From a virus (taxonomy: Duplodnaviria > Heunggongvirae > Uroviricota > Caudoviricetes), in the IMG/VR virus record IMGVR_UViG_2547132415_000014, positions 1 to 21,879 of that record: a DNA stretch of 21,879 nt; one strand, 5' to 3'. Below are positions 4,116-21,879 of this stretch, piece after piece. The notes beneath the pieces were generated by a model, which ran no database searches, had not been told where the DNA came from, and worked only from the letters and a program-made list of their open reading frames with translations. Each line of letters starts with the position of its first letter. The first letter of the stretch is position 1. The translations under genes were made by a program, and so were the position numbers.

Positions 4116-5527
4116 CCTCGATTAATCCTATCTTTGAACCGTTCATTGAGGCGCATCGCTACAAAGTCGCCAAAGGCGGTCGAGGTAGCGGTAAGTCATG
4201 GGCAATTGCGAGACTGCTTGTTGAAGCGGCGCGTCGTCAGCCAGTGCGTATTCTCTGCGCTCGTGAACTGCAAAACAGTATCAGCGATTCGGTAATCCGG
4301 TTGCTTGAAGACACTATCGAGCGTGAAGGGTATTCGGCTGAGTTTGAAATTCAGCGTTCCATGATTCGTCATCTCGGAACGAATGCCGAATTCATGTTCT
4401 ACGGCATCAAAAACAACCCGACAAAAATTAAATCGCTCGAAGGTATTGATATCTGCTGGGTGGAGGAAGCGGAAGCGGTAACGAAGGAATCGTGGGATAT
4501 TCTGATTCCAACCATCCGCAAGCCATTTTCCGAAATATGGGTGAGCTTCAACCCGAAAAACATCCTCGACGATACCTATCAGCGATTCGTTGTAAATCCT
4601 CCCGATGATATTTGTCTGCTGACAGTGAACTACACCGACAACCCGCATTTTCCTGAAGTTCTCCGTCTGGAGATGGAAGAGTGTAAACGCAGAAATCCGA
4701 CACTGTATCGTCACATCTGGCTTGGTGAGCCGGTAAGCGCAAGTGATATGGCAATCATCAAACGTGAATGGCTTGAAGCCGCAACCGATGCGCACAAGAA
4801 ACTCGGATGGAAAGCGAAAGGCGCTGTTGTTTCTGCACATGACCCGTCAGATACAGGGCCAGATGCTAAAGGTTACGCATCGCGTCACGGGTCGGTGGTT
4901 AAGCGCATTGCCGAAGGTCTACTGATGGACATCAACGAGGGTGCTGACTGGGCTACTTCGCTGGCGATTGAAGACGGCGCTGACCATTACCTGTGGGATG
5001 GTGATGGTGTTGGTGCCGGGCTACGCAGACAGACAACGGAAGCGTTCTCCGGCAAGAAAATCACCGCCACGATGTTCAAGGGCAGTGAATCGCCATTCGA
5101 TGAAGATGCTCCGTATCAGGCCGGAGCATGGGCTGATGAAGTCGTACATGGCGACAACGTTCGCACTATTGGCGATGTGTTCCGCAATAAGCGAGCGCAA
5201 TTCTATTACGCGCTGGCTGACAGGCTGTATCTGACATATCGGGCGGTTGTTCACGGTGAGTATGCAGACCCCGACGACATGCTGAGTTTCGACAAAGAAG
5301 CGATAGGCGAGAAGATGCTGGAGAAGCTGTTTGCAGAACTGACGCAGATTCAGCGCAAATTCAATAACAACGGGAAGCTGGAGCTTATGACTAAGGTCGA
5401 AATGAAGCAGAAGCTCGGTATTCCATCTCCTAACCTGGCTGATGCGCTGATGATGTGTATGCATTGCCCGGAGTCGGCTGCGCAACCCGACTATTCCAGT
5501 TACTCTATTCCTTGTGGTGTAGGTTGA
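4112..5527 (+). CDS. terminase large subunit (ATPase plus nuclease)
   Basis: 471 aa; Walker A-type motif KGGRGSGKS near the N-terminus; Walker B-like ICWVEE; position between small terminase and portal. Confidence 0.9.
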   Translation: MTSINPIFEPFIEAHRYKVAKGGRGSGKSWAIARLLVEAARRQPVRILCARELQNSISDSVIRLLEDTIEREGYSAEFEIQRSMIRHLGTNAEFMFYGIKNNPTKIKSLEGIDICWVEEAEAVTKESWDILIPTIRKPFSEIWVSFNPKNILDDTYQRFVVNPPDDICLLTVNYTDNPHFPEVLRLEMEECKRRNPTLYRHIWLGEPVSASDMAIIKREWLEAATDAHKKLGWKAKGAVVSAHDPSDTGPDAKGYASRHGSVVKRIAEGLLMDINEGADWATSLAIEDGADHYLWDGDGVGAGLRRQTTEAFSGKKITATMFKGSESPFDEDAPYQAGAWADEVVHGDNVRTIGDVFRNKRAQFYYALADRLYLTYRAVVHGEYADPDDMLSFDKEAIGEKMLEKLFAELTQIQRKFNNNGKLELMTKVEMKQKLGIPSPNLADALMMCMHCPESAAQPDYSSYSIPCGVG

Positions 5528-5528
5528 T

Positions 5529-7727
5529 ATGGCAGAAAAAAAGATGACTGACTGGCATCGCAAGGTGCTGTGCAACTTTGATAATGCCTGGTCAGCAACG
5601 CAGGATATGCGTGAGCAGATTATTGAGGCTCAACGCTTCGTCAGGGTGTCCGGCGCACAGTGGGAAGGCAGCACAAACGCTGGTTACTCATTTGATGAAG
5701 GCAGGTTCGAGCATTATCCGCGTTTTGAACTGAATAAGATTACCCGTGAATGTGATCGCATCATTGGCGAGTATCGACAGAATCGCATCAGCGTTAAATT
5801 CAGGCCGAAGGATGACAAGGCATCGGAAGCGTTAGCCGAAAAAATGAACGGCAAATTCCGCGCTGACTATCAGGAAACATCCGGTGGCGAAGCGTGTGAT
5901 AACGCATTTGATGATGCCGTAACGGGCGGATTCGGTTGTTTCCGCATGTGTGCCGATTATGAAGATGAAATGGATCCGAGTAACGAGAAACGCCGTATAA
6001 GCCTTCTCCCTGTTTACGACCCAGCGACATGCGTCTTCTTTGATCAGGACAGCAAGCAATATGACCGCTCTGATGCTATGTGGGCTATGGAAATGTTCTC
6101 CATGACGCCTAAAGCGTTCGAGGCTGAATACCCTGATTCCATCGCGGCAAGCCTTTCTCGTGATGACACTGGCACTCAATATGACTGGTCAACCCCTGAT
6201 GCTATCTATGTTGGTCGCTACTACGAAGTTCGCATAGAGAAGGTGAAGCTCGCGGCATGGCGCAACCCTGTCAGCGGAGAAACGGCAATCTATGATGAAG
6301 AGCAAATCAAAGATATTGTCGACGAGCTGACCGATGGCGCATTCGAACTGATTGGTGAGCGGACAGTGAAGAAACGCAGAGTTTATTGCGGTCTTCTGTC
6401 TGGCGCTGAATGGCTGGAAGAACCGAAGCGTATTCCGGGCGAACATATTCCTCTCATCCCGGTATATGGGCGTCGATCATTTGTTGATAATCAGGAGCGA
6501 ATCGAAGGCCACGCAGCAAAAGCGATGGATGCACAGCGTCTTGAGAACCTGATGGTTTCCATGATTGCAGATAACGCCACTCAGGCTGGCGGCGATGGCA
6601 TTCCTGTAGTTGATGTTGACATGATTCCTGGTCCTCTTGCCACTCATTGGGCGGAGCGCAACAAAAAGCGCCCGGCGTTCCTGCCGATGGTCAGTCTGAA
6701 AAACAAAAACGGAGATATTACTGCGCAGGCTCAGGTCAGCAGTTATACACCTCCGACACAAATGCCTCCTGCTCTTGCCGGGCTATTGCAGTACACCGGA
6801 ACGGCTATTCAGCAAATTACAGGTGCGTCGCAGCTTGAGAATATGCCGAGCAACGTCGCTACCGATACCGTTGATAGCATCTTTAACCGGATGGACACGC
6901 AGTCCTATATCTACATGGACAACATGGCTAAATCCATGCGCCGTGCTGGCGTCGTGTGGCTTTCTATGGCTCGTGAAGTCTATGGCAGTGATACGCCGAT
7001 GCGTATCGTTAATGAGGACGGCAGCGATGACGTGGCGCTGATGACTGGTGAAGTGGTTGACCGTCAGACAGGGCAGGTTATCGCGCTTAATGACCTTTCG
7101 CAGGGTAACTATGAAGTGACTGTCGATGTTGGCCAGTCGTTCGCTACTCGCCGTGATGCAACGGTTAAGTCGTTACTTTCCATGCTGGCACTTATCCCAC
7201 CAGGAACTCCGAAGCACGACCTTGTATCGTCGATGATTCTCGACAATATGGACGGCGAAGGGATGGACGACCTGAAAGAATACAACCGCAATCAGTTGCT
7301 TCTGTCTGGCGTTATCAAGCCGAGAACGCCTGAAGAACAGCAGATGGTTGAACAGGCGAAACAACAACAGGCCAGTCAGCCAGATCCGGCTATGGTTGCA
7401 GCGCAAGGTCAGCTTCTTGCTGGTCAGGCTGAATTGCAGAAAGCGCAGAACGAACAGGCAGCCATTCAGGTTAAAGCATTCCAGGCACAGACTGATGCTC
7501 AGGTTGCAGCGGCAAATGTTGTGAAAATCCTCGCATCTGCCGATAGCCAGCAGAAATCTGATATCCGCGAGGCTCTGAAACTGCTCGGACAGTTCCAGCA
7601 ACAGCAAGGAGACAATGCCCGTGCTGATGCAGAGCTTGTCCTGAAAAGTCAGGCACAGGGTCATGCGCAGCGCATGGACATCAACAGCATCCTGCAAAAA
7701 TCAACTCAGCAACAACCACAGCAGTAA
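5529..7727 (+). CDS. portal protein (P22 gp1-like) with Gln-rich C-terminal barrel region
   Basis: 732 aa; recalled P22-portal hallmarks (GEHIPLIPVYG, PEEQQMVEQAKQQQASQPDPAMVAAQGQLLAGQAELQKAQ, ARADAELVLK...QRMDI); starts 2 nt after the terminase stop. Confidence 0.9.
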   Translation: MAEKKMTDWHRKVLCNFDNAWSATQDMREQIIEAQRFVRVSGAQWEGSTNAGYSFDEGRFEHYPRFELNKITRECDRIIGEYRQNRISVKFRPKDDKASEALAEKMNGKFRADYQETSGGEACDNAFDDAVTGGFGCFRMCADYEDEMDPSNEKRRISLLPVYDPATCVFFDQDSKQYDRSDAMWAMEMFSMTPKAFEAEYPDSIAASLSRDDTGTQYDWSTPDAIYVGRYYEVRIEKVKLAAWRNPVSGETAIYDEEQIKDIVDELTDGAFELIGERTVKKRRVYCGLLSGAEWLEEPKRIPGEHIPLIPVYGRRSFVDNQERIEGHAAKAMDAQRLENLMVSMIADNATQAGGDGIPVVDVDMIPGPLATHWAERNKKRPAFLPMVSLKNKNGDITAQAQVSSYTPPTQMPPALAGLLQYTGTAIQQITGASQLENMPSNVATDTVDSIFNRMDTQSYIYMDNMAKSMRRAGVVWLSMAREVYGSDTPMRIVNEDGSDDVALMTGEVVDRQTGQVIALNDLSQGNYEVTVDVGQSFATRRDATVKSLLSMLALIPPGTPKHDLVSSMILDNMDGEGMDDLKEYNRNQLLLSGVIKPRTPEEQQMVEQAKQQQASQPDPAMVAAQGQLLAGQAELQKAQNEQAAIQVKAFQAQTDAQVAAANVVKILASADSQQKSDIREALKLLGQFQQQQGDNARADAELVLKSQAQGHAQRMDINSILQKSTQQQPQQ

Positions 7728-7817
7728 TTAACCCATAACGTGCAATGGCTGTCTTTATGAGGCCTGGCACCCTATTGCCTTCCGATGGGCTGAACATCGA
7801 GTAAACAGGGGTAACAA

Positions 7818-8711
7818 ATGGACCAGATGGCAGAAAACACACCAGAAGTTGAAATCGAAACCGACGCGTCAGAGCAGATTCCTGATGATGTCGAACTGGC
7901 TGAAGAAGTCGAAACAGAAGATGGCAGTGAGTCATCCGGCAATGATGTAGAGGAAGCTACTGAAACTGATGACGACGAATCAGAACAGGAATTCTACTTT
8001 GGTGACGAAAAGCTGGATTCGCCAACCAGCGAAGATGGCGCAGAGCATGGACTGGTAAAACACCTGCGCAAGACGATTAAAGAGAAAGACCGCGAGCTGA
8101 AAGAGCTGATGCGTCAGTCTCAGAAACCCGTCGAGCAGCAGCCGGTAATCACTCAACCACCGCGAATGCCAAAACTGGACGATGAGGACATCGGTTTCGA
8201 TGAAGAAATCTACCAGCAACGCATGGCTAAGTGGGCAGAGGATAACGGCAAGTACCAGCAACAGGAGATGGCTCGCAAGCAGAAGGAGCAGGAGCTTCAG
8301 GCTGCTTATCAAGAGCGATTATCCAAATATCAGCAACGTGTTAAGGCTCTCAAGGTTCCTGGCTATCAGGAAGCAGAACAGGCCGTACTCGAGGAAATCC
8401 CCATCGAGACACAAAACGCGATCCTGTTTGAGTCAGAGAAGCCGGAAATCGTTGTTCTAGCGCTTGGTCGCAACGCTGAACTGCGCAAGCAACTGGCAGA
8501 AGCTACCAACCCCGTAGCAATTGGTCGTCTGCTGGAACGTATCGAATCGAAGGCCAGAATCATGCCAAAAGCAAAAACCACGGCAGCCACAACCCCGACA
8601 GTTAAGGGGAGCAACGGCGCAGTAATCAATAACCTCGACAAACTGAAAGCCAGGGCGCTGGAAACTGGTGACTGGACGCCGTATTTCGCCGCTAAAAAGG
8701 CAAAAAAATAA
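7818..8711 (+). CDS. scaffolding protein
   Basis: 297 aa, acidic N-terminus, charged helical middle, basic C-terminus; located between portal and coat as in P22 (gene 8). Confidence 0.8.
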   Translation: MDQMAENTPEVEIETDASEQIPDDVELAEEVETEDGSESSGNDVEEATETDDDESEQEFYFGDEKLDSPTSEDGAEHGLVKHLRKTIKEKDRELKELMRQSQKPVEQQPVITQPPRMPKLDDEDIGFDEEIYQQRMAKWAEDNGKYQQQEMARKQKEQELQAAYQERLSKYQQRVKALKVPGYQEAEQAVLEEIPIETQNAILFESEKPEIVVLALGRNAELRKQLAEATNPVAIGRLLERIESKARIMPKAKTTAATTPTVKGSNGAVINNLDKLKARALETGDWTPYFAAKKAKK

Positions 8712-17772: not shown

Positions 17773-18102
17773 CTATTTAATTCTCTTTTCAATGGCTGCA
17801 ATTATTGCTTTTCCTGATGTTTCAGGAGATTTTGTAGCCATATAAGACGAAAAAATCATGTCGGTCATTCTTTCATAACTTACTATTTCCCACTTAGCCA
17901 ATGCATGGGACAGTTTGTAGTTGTCATCAGTTAGTGCCCTTATGGAATTTTTTAAGTGTTTATTCTCTTCTGTTAATCGCGCAATTTTTGTATCAATTTC
18001 ATGTGAGCGATCTAATTCCTTAACCTGTTTCTTGAGGGCAGCTAACCCTGCATATAGTACGCAACAGGATATCCCAAGAGCGAGTACGACTATTTCTAAC
18101 AC
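17773..18102 (-). CDS. small bitopic membrane protein: N-terminal TM helix plus coiled-coil domain (function unknown)
   Basis: GTG start at 18102 with a strong SD AAGGAGG 5 nt upstream (plus-strand cctcctt 18108-18114); product MLEIVVLALGISCCVLYAGLAAL then a heptad-like KKQVKELDRSHEIDTKIARLTEENKHLKNSIRAL; AT-rich. The 181-aa ATG-extended version looks like antisense junk. Confidence 0.6.
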   Translation of the reverse strand: MLEIVVLALGISCCVLYAGLAALKKQVKELDRSHEIDTKIARLTEENKHLKNSIRALTDDNYKLSHALAKWEIVSYERMTDMIFSSYMATKSPETSGKAIIAAIEKRIK

Positions 18103-18132
18103 ACCAACCTCCTTAGTTTTTCGCAGGATACC

Positions 18133-18498
18133 ATGAAAAAAGTTAACATTGGAAACGTACCAAAGATGCTCGTTCCGCTCTTTGAGAGCGGTACAATTGT
18201 GTTTTGTAGAGACTTTCCAGAATGGCAACGCCTGCATCAAAAACTTGGTGTGGACGTGCAGGACTCGGATGCCAACGGAGCGTCTCATACAATGAGCAGC
18301 GAGAATGGTGTTTTGCATGTGATAGGCGTGTTCAATGGCAAACTATCTACTATTGCCCATGAGTGCGCTCACATGGCATTCGATATCTGCTCAAGGGTCG
18401 GTGTTGATGTTGAACCAGGAAGAGCCAACGAGACTTACTGCTACTTAATGAGCAGGCTTGTTGAGTTCTGCGAGCGACATATCAAAAAGCCGGAGTGA
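18133..18498 (+). CDS. HExxH zincin-like small protein, possible minimal ImmA/IrrE-type metallopeptidase (function unknown)
   Basis: 121 aa; motif TIAHECAHMAF followed about 14-20 residues later by E...ANE...YLM, a pattern recalled from M78-type peptidases; SD-like agga 5 nt before the ATG. Start codon uncertain (internal Met alternatives exist). Confidence 0.55.
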   Translation: MKKVNIGNVPKMLVPLFESGTIVFCRDFPEWQRLHQKLGVDVQDSDANGASHTMSSENGVLHVIGVFNGKLSTIAHECAHMAFDICSRVGVDVEPGRANETYCYLMSRLVEFCERHIKKPE

Positions 18499-18506
18499 CC
18501 CGGCTT
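18487..18506. terminator. candidate bidirectional terminator hairpin (aagccgg-agtgac-ccggctt) between the HExxH gene and the YjzC-like gene
   Basis: 7-bp stem flanked by an A-run on one side and a T-rich stretch on the other, so it reads as a hairpin plus U-tract on both strands (better on the minus strand). Confidence 0.45.
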
Positions 18507-18511
18507 GATTA

Positions 18512-18691
18512 TTACTTTTTGCTGTCTGGAGTTCGCTTATCTAATACCCAGCCATGACCTGGCTTTGTTGTTGGTGGAAGCCTTTCGTTGTCCTTGACGG
18601 TGGCAAAATTGTCTTTCTTACCGCCGCGCGGGCCAACTTCTTGGTATATTCCGCCGTTTTTTCCTGTGTTTTCACCTGGTTTTTTCGCCAT
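18512..18691 (-). CDS. YjzC-like small protein (59 aa)
   Basis: ATG at 18691 preceded by gaggt; product MAKKPGENTGKNGGIYQEVGPRGG...LPPTTKPGHGWVL shows the KPGE/NGGIY/LPPT pattern recalled for the YjzC family; own promoter candidate upstream. Confidence 0.6.
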   Translation of the reverse strand: MAKKPGENTGKNGGIYQEVGPRGGKKDNFATVKDNERLPPTTKPGHGWVLDKRTPDSKK

Positions 18692-18727
18692 GATATACCT
18701 CAACATACACCCGTTATTGGGCGATTA

Positions 18728-19189: not shown

Positions 19190-21247
19190 ATGACAGACAT
19201 TACAGCCAATGTTGTAGTGAGTATGCCTTCGCAACTCTTCACTATGGCTCGTTCTTTTAAAGCCGTAGCCAATGGCAAAATTTATATCGGTAAAATTGAC
19301 ACTGACCCAGTAAATCCTGAAAACCAGATTCAGGTTTGTGTGGAGAATGAAGACGGTTCTCACGTTCCTGTTTCGCAACCAATAATCATTAACGCTGCTG
19401 GATATCCGGTATATAACGGACAGATTGCCAAGTTCGTAACTGTGCAAGGCCATTCTATGGCTGTTTATGATGCGTATGGTGCACAGCAGTTCTATTTTCC
19501 TAATGTGCTGAAGTATGACCCGGATCAGTTAAGACAAGAGTTAGCAACAGAGGGTAATGAAATACTTGTTGACGACTCCCGTATTGCAGTTAAAAGTGTT
19601 CATGTAAATTCAAAACTTAGAACCCAGCACAATAAAAACGCAGAAATAATCACGCCAAATGATTTTATATCAAATTATGACATGATATCTGCAGCTATTA
19701 ACTCTGGAGATAGTGCCGCAGTATTTAATTCCAGGTATGCATTCACAATAACAGTTGGGGAATATGGTAATTTTAAATCTATTAGTGATGCTCTAAACTC
19801 AGCTGTTGCACTGCGTCCACTATGGAAAAATGGCATTGATTTTTGCATAATTAAAATTCTTTCCGGTTTTGTGCTCAATGAGCAAATAGAAATTTCAGCA
19901 GGATGTGACTTATCATGGATTAAAATAATATCAGAAGACTCAGTGGTTTTCTCTGATACCAGTTTGTTTACTAAAACTGTTAGGACGTATTACGAATACA
20001 AATATTTATTTTACATTTGCGATGCAGCAAAAAGTCCTGTATTTGCTATTCAGATTGAAGAAAATAGAGATGATAGCGATGTTTGTGCATTTATTGTAAC
20101 TCAAAAAGCTGAACTTAATTTCTATCCGTATTCAGGTGCTCGAAAGTTCTACGTTGGAATTCATGGTAGCTTTGGTGCAAAAATTAGTGCATATCATACC
20201 GGATGTGCTCCTGATGAGGAAAGTGTTGCTGCATATATGCCAGAAGGGTATTACGTATGTGATTTTTCTTATAGCAGATACTCTTCCCTGCAACTGGTAA
20301 ATAATGTCAAGGCATCAATGCCTGTAAGCAAGTTTGAACGGTGCACAGAGAGTACGGTTGCGTCAGTTAATTGTATTTATAATGTTAAAGCAGATTTTCA
20401 GGGGTCAAGTGCAAGCTATTGTTATATAGGATGGAATGTAAGAGATGGTTCAAATGTTAATATACGCGACCATAAAACTATACATTGCTCATATCGTGGA
20501 TTAACCTGCATTCATACAGCATATGTTGATGCAAGACGACATGACGTTGAAGAAAGTGATGCAGAAACAAGTGGTAAAGTCCTTGAACCAAATATTGAAA
20601 AAGGTTTTTATGGATGTGCACTTGGTGTGCGTATTGATGGTGCGGGTTGTGTTGATGTTGCTGGTAATGATATGCGCAATTGTGGAACAGCCGTTAATGC
20701 AGACACTGGTGCTGTTATTTCAGGAAAGGCTGTAGATATCTCAGGGGCTGAGTTGGGATTTGATTGCCATGCAGGAGCATCTGTTAATTTTCCAAGGCTA
20801 TGGGGTACAGATATAAAAAAATTAATGCACCTCCAAGATGGTGTAAGGTTTAACTCTAATATTTGTCATGTATTTGGTGCAAATCCCACAAAAGATATTA
20901 GATGGATTGATGTAGAGAGATCTGAAGCTTCTTTTATGAATGCAACGCTGGATGCAGATTCAGGATTTATTGCCGACTGTGGTAGTAGGATAACCATTGA
21001 AGGAAGTAAAGTTAAAAACCAAACAATAAGAAGTTTTTTTGGATCACATGTGGCTATAAATAATACTGTTGCTGACAGAACTTATTCAGATATAGCCGAT
21101 GTTCCGCAGTTGACTATTAGTGGAGGATCTTTTATTTCTGCTACAGGATATTCTAATTCTGACTCCAGCCCTCTTAGGTTGAGCACAACACGAAATACAC
21201 TTGGAGTTGGAGGAGCCATATTTTCAACCAATGGGGAAGTTTCATGA
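19190..21247 (+). CDS. tailspike protein: P22 gp9-type N-terminal head-binding domain fused to an unrelated beta-helix-like receptor-binding/depolymerase domain
   Basis: First ~110 aa ([34 protein letters not shown]...NVLKYDPDQ) recalled as P22 tailspike head-binding domain; the rest is unrelated, AT-rich, Cys-rich (~20 Cys) and Asn/Ser/Gly-rich. Confidence 0.9.
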
Positions 21248-21543
21248 TTAAGAGCATTGATGTCACTCCATTTCTTCACTCGCTTTGCGCTTTTGCGGCT
21301 CAGGTACTGGTTGGTATTTTTACCGGAAACTGGGCTTACGGTGCGATAGCCGGTTGTACGTTCTTCATTGCGCGTGAACACACCCAGGCAGAATATCGCT
21401 GGATAGAAAAGTTTGGGAAAGGGAAACGTGTCAACATGCCGTGGTGGGGAGGTTTTGATCCACGCGTGTGGGATGTGGGAAGTTTGTTGGATTTTTCTTT
21501 CCCAATTATCGGATGCTTATTGGTATGGATTCTTGCATCGTAG
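21244..21543 (+). CDS. small membrane protein (99 aa, two hydrophobic segments), translationally coupled to the tailspike
   Basis: ATG overlaps the tailspike stop (ATGA); hydrophobic segments [30 protein letters not shown] and [19 protein letters not shown]; occupies the slot between tailspike and att that holds conversion genes in P22. Confidence 0.5.
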
Positions 21544-21774
21544 CGAACACATAATTACCGATGAGACAAAACTGAGACACACCAAGCTTTGCACTGGATT
21601 GCAAGGCTTTGTGCTCTTCTATGCTGGGTGGCTACATGTTTGAAGATCGTTGTGCCGTATTTGTGACATACACATGACAACATCATGCATCAACTTTCTG
21701 TTTGTGCCATCAACTATTGCTTGGTGAATGCGGCTAATGCTTGCTAAAACAGATAGTTATGATTGGTGCTACAG

Positions 21775-21820
21775 ATTCGTAATGCGAAGGTCGTAGGTTC
21801 GACTCCTATTATCGGCACCA
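21775..21820 (+). other. attachment-site core: 3' 46 nt of a tRNA-Thr(CGU) gene (thrW-like), anticodon loop to CCA, without the 5' half
   Basis: attcgtaatgcgaaggtcgtaggttcgactcctattatcggcacca contains anticodon CGT in its loop, T-arm GGTTCGACTCC, acceptor 3' strand and CCA; upstream sequence cannot form the 5' half. P22-type phages integrate into thrW. Confidence 0.7.
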
Positions 21821-21879
21821 TTAAAATCAATAAGTTACACATCATTAGTACCTTCCTTATTTTTTGACTGGGACAAATT

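Follow-up and report, generated by a model that had tools for sequence, protein, structure and literature searches.

A 99-aa protein encoded at the 3' end of a phage tailspike gene may be an accessory inner-membrane protein that acts on a common membrane or envelope component and sits at the right-hand end of receptor-binding cassettes, a reading to which we give a probability of about 0.45. The gene lies at 21244-21543 (+ strand) of IMG/VR virus record IMGVR_UViG_2547132415_000014 (Caudoviricetes), whose positions 1 to 21,879 were analyzed as one stretch of 21,879 nt (hereafter the window), and its product belongs to PHROG 1443. Four features fit action on a universal membrane or envelope component: a predicted cluster of conserved polar residues, independence from receptor specificity, homologues in housekeeping contexts and a spread across Proteobacteria. 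They fit a phage-specific exclusion factor, a holin or a fiber chaperone less well.

The small gene is real and under purifying selection, with dN/dS values of 0.12-0.38 against five homologues and dS of up to 0.98. Phage JEP4 carries an identical protein, annotated as "hypothetical protein" and overlapping the tailspike gene in the same way, and the same DNA is present in E. coli FORC_082. The product is an exact copy of a catalogued, uncharacterized phage protein; it differs in nothing from PHROG 1443, a family without function assignment, Pfam or NCBIfam model or structure. The gene and its immediate surroundings comprise the following features, called from the sequence, alignments, a list of open reading frames (ORFs) and PHROG hidden Markov models (HMMs).

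19190..21247, + strand: tailspike gene, 685 aa, with a P22-type head-binding N-terminus and a receptor-binding part also found on epsilon15-type tail fibers (PHROGs, alignment)
21233..21239, + strand: GGGGAAG, Shine-Dalgarno-like purine run 4 nt 5' of the ATG, within the tailspike 3' end (sequence)
21244..21543, + strand: small gene, coding sequence of 99 aa, PHROG 1443 member, predicted three-helix inner-membrane protein (ORF list, PHROG HMM)
21244..21247, + strand: ATGA, the small-gene start ATG (21244-21246) on the tailspike stop TGA (21245-21247) (sequence)
21256..21622, + strand: small gene, counted from the ancestral start, with about 80 nt 3' of it, a unit conserved beside varying tailspikes (megablast)
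21373..21405, + strand: codons of residues 44-54, near-invariant core motif of the family (alignments of members)
21436..21474, + strand: codons of residues 65-77 (M65 first), Trp/Gly/Pro-rich loop (ORF list, alignments)

Conservation and predicted architecture of PHROG 1443

The phrog_1443 HMM matched the protein at E 9.1e-54, aligning residues 5-98 to profile positions 1-94 of 97. The only PHROG matches were to three families of unknown function, among them phrog_34165, which covers the C-terminal half. Among 5.8 billion proteins searched, 424 homologous clusters were found, in which the named matches were all "hypothetical protein" and those listed measured 73-146 aa. When 1.84 billion representatives were searched exhaustively with an HMM, 431 proteins, as 50% identity representatives, matched at E <= 0.001. 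Members are typically about 95 aa long, and the best 150 of the 431 HMM matches are stand-alone proteins of 58-146 aa, none of them fused to a known domain. Neither a Pfam scan at E <= 10, GtrA included, nor the NCBIfam models matched the protein, the PADLOC-DB defense models gave 0 families at E <= 10, and nothing was found in the PDB by sequence-profile searches with two alignments or by fold. Scanned singly against Pfam, 116 distant members produced just weak transmembrane-region noise (PhoR_N, VirB3, cytochrome b561), and GtrA was absent from the 25 most frequent of the 45 families matched. The homologue of phage 21 is annotated as "putative membrane protein", and no paper in the literature searched deals with the family or cites its accessions.

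Hydropathy and AlphaFold2 agree on a small polytopic membrane protein, as the earlier note on this DNA, made from the sequence alone, had anticipated. The hydropathy profile peaks strongly at about residues 10-28 and 80-99, with a moderate shoulder across 29-43, and the AlphaFold2 model (101-sequence alignment; mean predicted local distance difference test score 85.9) places helices at 8-27, 30-57 and 78-98. The two hydrophobic segments flanking a loop that the note had described thus become three predicted helices, its first segment (9-43) consisting of a strong and a moderate helix, while the Trp/Gly/Pro-rich loop stands as residues 65-77 (21436-21474).

For a protein of this size, conservation is extreme. 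The near-invariant core of the family comprises H12, R44-E45-x-x-Q48-A49-E50-Y51-R52, R62, W76, D83 and P87, and its motif is conserved from E. coli phages to Sphingomonas chromosomes. All 30 close members keep residues 44-54, H12, M65, P66, W68, G69, G70, D72, W76, D83 and P87 invariant. Across the 116 distant members R44 is still invariant, H12, E45, Q48, A49, E50, W76 and P87 are at least 90% conserved, and Y51, R52, R62 and D83 are strongly conserved. Since H12, R44/E45/Q48 and D83 each lie within one to two turns of the same end of their helices in the model, we infer that the conserved polar residues form a cluster near one membrane face, beside the Trp-rich interfacial loop. Such a cluster would bind or act on a membrane or envelope component common to Proteobacteria rather than on a particular phage receptor. 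The combination of His, Glu and Asp with three Arg suggests a metal and/or a lipid phosphate as ligand, and our guess would be an anionic lipid phosphate (the undecaprenyl carrier or a phospholipid) or a metal ion.

Chromosomal homologues and phage contexts

The family is not confined to phages. In a survey of GTDB with one genome per species (49 loci), tail proteins lie upstream of the homologue in Escherichia, Aeromonas, Comamonas, Pantoea, Leclercia and Acidovorax. In Sphingomonas, Sphingomicrobium and other alphaproteobacteria the homologue follows ligA, pnp or a herA-like gene, or stands beside a gene for a PhyH-like dioxygenase. Synteny is kept between alphaproteobacterial genomes, with ligA then the homologue in two loci (L046 and L052; L numbers label the loci compared here) and the PhyH-like gene then the homologue in three (L039, L041 and L045). 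Their core is nearly identical to the phage core, which in close homologues is matched at more than 50% identity; in alphaproteobacteria this is an ordinary chromosomal gene. Nearly all family loci are from Alpha-, Beta- or Gammaproteobacteria, the exception being L054, from a Desulfovibrio metagenome-assembled genome (MAG; Candidatus Desulfovibrio intestinipullorum), and the remaining loci from outside this group (Collinsella, Dehalococcoidia, Desulfovibrio piger) are known just from very short scaffolds or single MAG contigs. Sphingomonads carry glycosphingolipids in place of lipopolysaccharide (LPS), and a family with homologues in these LPS-free bacteria cannot have an O-antigen- or LPS-specific function. 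Two of the loci, L043 and L046, differ in context and have only the 328-bp gene in common, at 92% identity.

In phages, the small gene is the most constant neighbor of the most variable phage gene. Among the best 80 of 433 matching IMG/VR loci, on which all IMG/VR counts are based, the immediate upstream neighbor is a tailspike or tail-fiber gene in 77, and such a gene lies within two genes in 79; a predicted prophage or contig end falls at most 20 nt from the small gene in 20. The earlier note had tied the protein to receptor biology through its coupling to the receptor-binding gene: the genomic association is strongly borne out by these counts, the receptor-tied function is not. The association holds in P22-like, epsilon15-like and lambdoid phages, in phages bearing diversity-generating retroelements (DGRs) and in a jumbo phage. 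JEP4 has the order tailspike, small gene, int, and Gally an unrelated tailspike, a 240-nt gap, the small gene and int. In vB_EcoP-611R6 the tailspike is followed by an OafA acetylase gene, a tail-fiber remnant, the small gene and an argW-type int, and in the epsilon15-like phiv142-3 the tail fiber is followed by the small gene, holin and endolysin. The lambdoid elements (phage 21, PhiR41_1 and E. coli BL21) carry a side tail fiber, a 92-aa ORF (phrog_1361), a distal fiber piece if present, and then the small gene. Betaproteobacterial phage contigs have tail genes (DUF4376, DUF7338), the small gene, a holin and a muramidase, or, in another such contig, tail genes, the small gene, two ORFs and a GH108 endolysin, and the virulent jumbo Aeromonas phage ACP1 has an intact 87-aa homologue directly 5' of its tail-fiber gene. 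A single copy of the gene is ordinary; the family is abundant and highly conserved. A match is present in 1828 of 5426 complete E. coli genomes, about a third, at a median of two places per genome, and matches covering at least 80% of the gene occur in 370 genomes (about 7% of the 5426).

Some of these loci deserve separate mention. At two DGR loci, from Comamonas nitrativorans (L034) and Pigmentiphaga humi (L036), the region at about 4790-8060 holds an mtd-sized gene, the small gene, avd (phrog_3206) and a reverse-transcriptase-sized ORF, so that the small gene stands between the variable-region end of the target gene and the other DGR components. In phage 21 (L004, 5386-8835) a complete sitABCD iron/manganese transporter operon follows the small gene directly, on the opposite strand. 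In E. coli FORC_082 (L057, 3947-6300) the identical tailspike and small-gene module adjoins ybhB-bioA, a prophage integration site that differs from the thrW-type att of the window. Two candidate sources of functional information were set aside. In phiv142-3 (L005, 1792-4297) the family member is orf5, 76 nt downstream of orf6; the published serum and iron-limitation phenotype of this phage was assigned to the tail-fiber gene orf6, downstream transcription being reported as unaffected (data not shown), and orf6 and orf10, not orf5, were studied (PMC7724020). The "hyp24" of Kapi1, an ORF of 34 aa between tailspike and int that was tested without yielding an LPS phenotype, is unrelated to the family.

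The receptor-binding genes in front of the small gene vary where the small gene does not. Identity of the small protein remains at 75-89% between phages whose receptor-binding proteins have at most an N-terminal adaptor domain in common, and at least eight receptor-binding C-terminal types precede it in the IMG/VR loci. This conservation across unrelated receptor-binding domains, together with the homologues in LPS-free sphingomonads, makes a receptor-specific or O-antigen-specific role unlikely. The window itself illustrates the variation: its tailspike has whole-length matches to tail-spike and tail-fiber PHROGs, phrog_5662 included, and over residues 1-118 is 96.6% identical to the head-binding domain of the P22-like Gally tailspike, while sequence comparison found no match to the Gally tailspike beyond residue 118.

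The gene also travels with its neighbor. The C-terminal part of the window's tailspike, with the ATGA-coupled gene, is found behind a P22-type head-binding domain in five IMG/VR loci (L071-L075) and behind an epsilon15/phiv142-3-type N-terminus in five others (L083-L085, L087 and L088), which indicates that both move as one cassette between podovirus genera. Remnants of other fibers persist at the junction. In vB_EcoP-611R6 (L003, 3793-4005), 213 nt that are 96.7% identical to a lambdoid tail-fiber 3' end (E. ruysiae L008, 5796-6008) lie between the OafA acetylase gene and the small gene, part of them annotated as a 114-nt "tail fiber protein", and Gally retains about 90 nt of a lambdoid tail-fiber 3' end before the small gene. 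The megablast match to 611R6 starts at 21256 and that to Gally at 21271, both ending at about 21613-21619, and the 92 nt downstream of the gene are 93-97% identical in JEP4, FORC_082, Gally and 611R6. Such remnants and chimeras are what cassette exchange via flanking homology would leave. The small gene is the conserved right flank, and the adaptor domain the conserved left flank, of a hypervariable receptor-binding region, and the gene may thus act as a homology arm through which cassettes are exchanged. The virulent phages HC6 (L067, 3465-3620) and Kuttervirus KFSST3 (L069, 3501-3650) carry frameshifted or truncated remnants of the small gene directly after their tailspike genes, which points to temperate phages as the source of these tailspike 3' modules, acquired together with a downstream neighbor that later decayed. 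Whatever its function, the gene marks the right-hand boundary of natural receptor-binding cassettes, which is useful for predicting or engineering host-range swaps.

Candidate roles of the small protein

The conserved place of the gene beside receptor-binding genes invites comparison with superinfection exclusion at the inner membrane, in which the protein would block DNA entry of incoming phages. P22 SieA, T4 Imm and HK97 gp15 are likewise small phage inner-membrane proteins and prophage accessory genes; the small gene lies at a prophage end, in a type of region known to hold exclusion genes, since those for Cor and Llp also sit beside receptor-binding genes, and its frequency in E. coli genomes would suit such a role. 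We nonetheless regard exclusion, which the earlier note had raised, as unlikely, no evidence in this analysis favoring it. Exclusion proteins typically form lineage-specific, fast-evolving and narrow families, unlike a core that is near-invariant from E. coli phages to Sphingomonas housekeeping contexts; the intact gene in the virulent ACP1 and the lack of a match to PADLOC defense models point the same way. To SieA, Imm and gp15 no homology was detected, and at 50% identity the family counts about 430 representatives from Alpha-, Beta- and Gammaproteobacteria, non-prophage chromosomal genes included. Cor (phi80, N15, T1) and T5 Llp share with the small protein a gene beside the receptor-binding gene, and they act at the envelope, where the small protein would act too, but they are outer-membrane lipoproteins specific for FhuA, whereas the small protein is predicted to be polytopic and located in the inner membrane. 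Its N-terminus has no basic n-region and no lipobox of the form [LVI][ASTVI][GAS]C (HSLC stands at residues 12-15, and most members have Ile, Val or Leu in place of Cys15), and it does not co-vary with the receptor-binding domain, as its identity across unrelated domains attests. The note had proposed a comparison with small exclusion-protein families; neither the Cor/Llp type nor the PADLOC-DB models accommodate the protein.

Serotype conversion or receptor modification, by which the protein would alter the O-antigen or another receptor, alone or by inhibiting Wzy or an O-acetylase, seems very improbable. P22 gtrABC and Sf6 oac occupy the same slot between tailspike and att, the small gene of 611R6 comes just after an OafA-type O-acetylase, and small membrane peptides that inhibit the O-antigen polymerase are a precedent from D3 and epsilon15 (PMC8787464). 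Against this, the protein is conserved whatever the tailspike specificity, has homologues in LPS-free sphingomonads and in phages of Aeromonas, Comamonas and Acidovorax, lacks accompanying partner genes and matched no Pfam model, GtrA or acyltransferase included. With gtrABC and oac it has in common the slot, a membrane protein and an accessory gene; it differs from them in sequence, in having no GtrB/GtrC partners and in its independence of O-antigen type. GtrA has four transmembrane helices in about 120 aa and comes with GtrB and GtrC genes, in contrast to three predicted helices in 99 aa and, as neighbors, only the tailspike and att. The suggestion of a GtrA-like protein (PF04138) thus fails, and that of a role tied to a particular receptor finds no support and is in part contradicted.

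A lysis-associated protein (holin, antiholin or lysis-timing factor) is a somewhat less remote proposition, yet still quite improbable. Class I holins such as lambda S and P22 gp13 likewise have about 100 aa and three hydrophobic helices, and in phiv142-3 and four contigs (L060-L062, L030) the small gene directly precedes a holin or endolysin gene. But the window's own lysis cassette lies about 19 kb away (ORFs at 834-2051, laid out as in Kapi1), and the small gene of P22-like and lambdoid phages accompanies the receptor-binding gene rather than the lysis genes. Holins are typically poorly conserved, unlike this family with its near-invariant polar core; the protein ends LLVWILAS, without a charged C-terminal tail; homologues occur on chromosomes outside prophages; and no holin HMM matched except a weak Phage_holin_8 hit (E 0.0036) in one of the 116 distant members. 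The holin family that the earlier note had listed is thus disfavored: Pfam and PHROG gave no lysis match, and adjacency to lysis genes is found only in some relatives. A factor for tailspike or tail-fiber assembly or maturation, in the position of Tfa or gp38-type chaperones, would account for a location immediately 3' of the receptor-binding gene, often with translational coupling, and is hardly credible otherwise. Such chaperones co-vary with the domain they fold, which the small protein does not, and an integral membrane protein, as predicted, departs from the solubility expected of them. Many upstream fibers carry their own Peptidase_S74 intramolecular chaperone, chromosomal homologues stand with no phage nearby, and HC6 has a decayed copy of the gene after a tailspike ORF (859 aa) that itself seems intact. 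The remaining probability goes to something else, a role other than these four and other than the envelope-directed one that we prefer.

For the preferred reading, the gene would be accessory and non-structural, and exchangeable receptor-binding cassettes would have it as their conserved right-hand end. Several observations weigh against it or against parts of it. The ligand is a guess from residue chemistry, and the searches found no homology to a characterized protein. The orientation of the protein can be argued both ways: the loop at 44-78 carries about 5.6 Lys/Arg, against fewer than 1 elsewhere, so that the positive-inside rule favors a cytoplasmic loop; against this, alphaproteobacterial members have strongly basic C-tails and Arg/Lys in the turn between helices 1 and 2, and the phage 21 record cites a TMHMM prediction of two transmembrane segments with N-in and C-in, which would make the loop periplasmic. 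Many relatives have their own ribosome-binding site and a spacer of 30-240 nt (6-240 nt overall), and some have divergent upstream genes; expression in lysogens is therefore possible. The decay of the gene in some virulent phages argues that it is dispensable for lytic growth. As to what the phage would gain, envelope remodeling, protection of progeny, exclusion and host fitness are candidates at the level of a guess.

A bolder version, which we put forward as speculation and think improbable as a whole, is that PHROG 1443, cellular in origin and captured by phages as the 3' flank of receptor-binding cassettes, is a new type of minimal enzyme or ligand-binding module (about 95 aa) embedded in the membrane. 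Its His/Glu/Asp/Arg cluster would have a metal or a universal lipid-linked envelope precursor as its target, giving receptor-independent envelope remodeling in the infected or lysogenic cell, and the gene would double as a right-hand homology arm for tip swaps among P22-like, epsilon15-like and lambdoid phages. If the protein does have an envelope-directed activity, temperate phages would possess in it a widespread accessory function that does not depend on the receptor. The chromosomal homologues of Sphingomonadales offer a phage-free system in which to find the biochemical activity.

Start codon, expression and the attachment region

The overlap that the earlier note reported, with the ATG of the small gene on the tailspike stop (ATGA, 21244-21247), is present in the sequence. 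Stop/start overlaps are frequent in phage operons, and the overlap by itself is unremarkable. The same -4 overlap with this tailspike C-terminal type occurs in ten of the 80 IMG/VR loci and in JEP4. In the start-region alignment most relatives begin "MDITP" after their own AAGGAGG ribosome-binding site; the coupling is accordingly a trait of this receptor-binding cassette and not of the PHROG 1443 family. The ancestral ATG of these relatives is an ATT (21256, Ile5) in the window and in JEP4, the sequence upstream of it is tailspike-specific, and a replacement ATG lies 12 nt 5' of the ancestral start, after GGGGAAG. PGAP places the start of the small gene in FORC_082 at the ATT codon; we consider the ATG at 21244 the better start. 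Translational coupling to the tailspike via ATGA is probable on this arrangement.

No sigma-70-like promoter site was found on the + strand at 19,917-21,243 (the last 1.3 kb of the tailspike gene), no terminator-like site lies between the tailspike and small-gene ORFs, and no intergenic space separates the two genes. From the lack of an own promoter, of a spacer and of an intervening terminator we infer co-transcription and coupled translation with the tailspike, and hence late expression. The small gene would then close the late operon without a promoter of its own, and its translation with the tailspike would fall late in the lytic cycle. Across 31 genome loci with an upstream gene on the same strand, the stop codon of that gene lies at most 75 nt from the His12 codon in 15. 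Late-operon morons such as lambda lom and bor are likewise non-structural genes of the distal late or tail operon and often the last before the prophage boundary; they are unrelated in sequence, and the small gene of the window differs in being joined to the end of the tailspike reading frame, with no promoter of its own found. Examined for the hallmarks of a moron, the window has no promoter-like site upstream of the gene, and downstream a hairpin with a weak U-tract. The downstream region holds two features.

21564..21838, + strand: thrW-type attachment region (identity to attP/int ends of thrW-integrating phages)
21574..21616, + strand: stem-loop then UUCUAU, possible weak terminator at the late-operon end (RNA fold)

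The fold of 21544-21640 has an energy of -25.6 kcal/mol (z -2.06); a consensus terminator scan did not call the hairpin at 21574-21616 and found no promoter or terminator adjoining the small gene.

The attachment region is 92.9-94.6% identical over 21564-21838 to the attP/int ends of HK542, HK75, mEp213 and SfX, which are annotated as "similar to thrW tRNA gene", and the placement of the small gene between tailspike and att that the earlier note had described is correct. We take the stretch 21775-21820 to be the 3' end of tRNA-Thr (thrW). ARAGORN and Rfam detected no complete tRNA in the att region, and Rfam no RNA family in 21100-21879. Beyond it, at 21839-21879, the last 40 nt of the window still match E. 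coli chromosomes, with an integrase gene annotated under the match. The right end of the window is either an unintegrated gene-attP-int arrangement or an attR beside the integrase of a resident thrW island.

Two further places in the window were noted. Genes for tRNA-Asn (GTT) and tRNA-Thr (TGT) lie at 436-591, just 5' of the lysis-size ORFs at 834-2051, a layout shared with Kapi1. The slot at 17773-18706, between the gene for a DNA-transfer protein and that for an Mnt-like repressor, corresponds to the place of sieA and hkcC in P22. It holds a 181-aa ORF on the - strand (phrog_8100 over the C-terminal 109 aa) overlapping a 121-aa ORF on the + strand (phrog_1365), together with a 64-aa ORF on the - strand (phrog_3202), and FORC_082 has a Panacea-domain gene in that slot.

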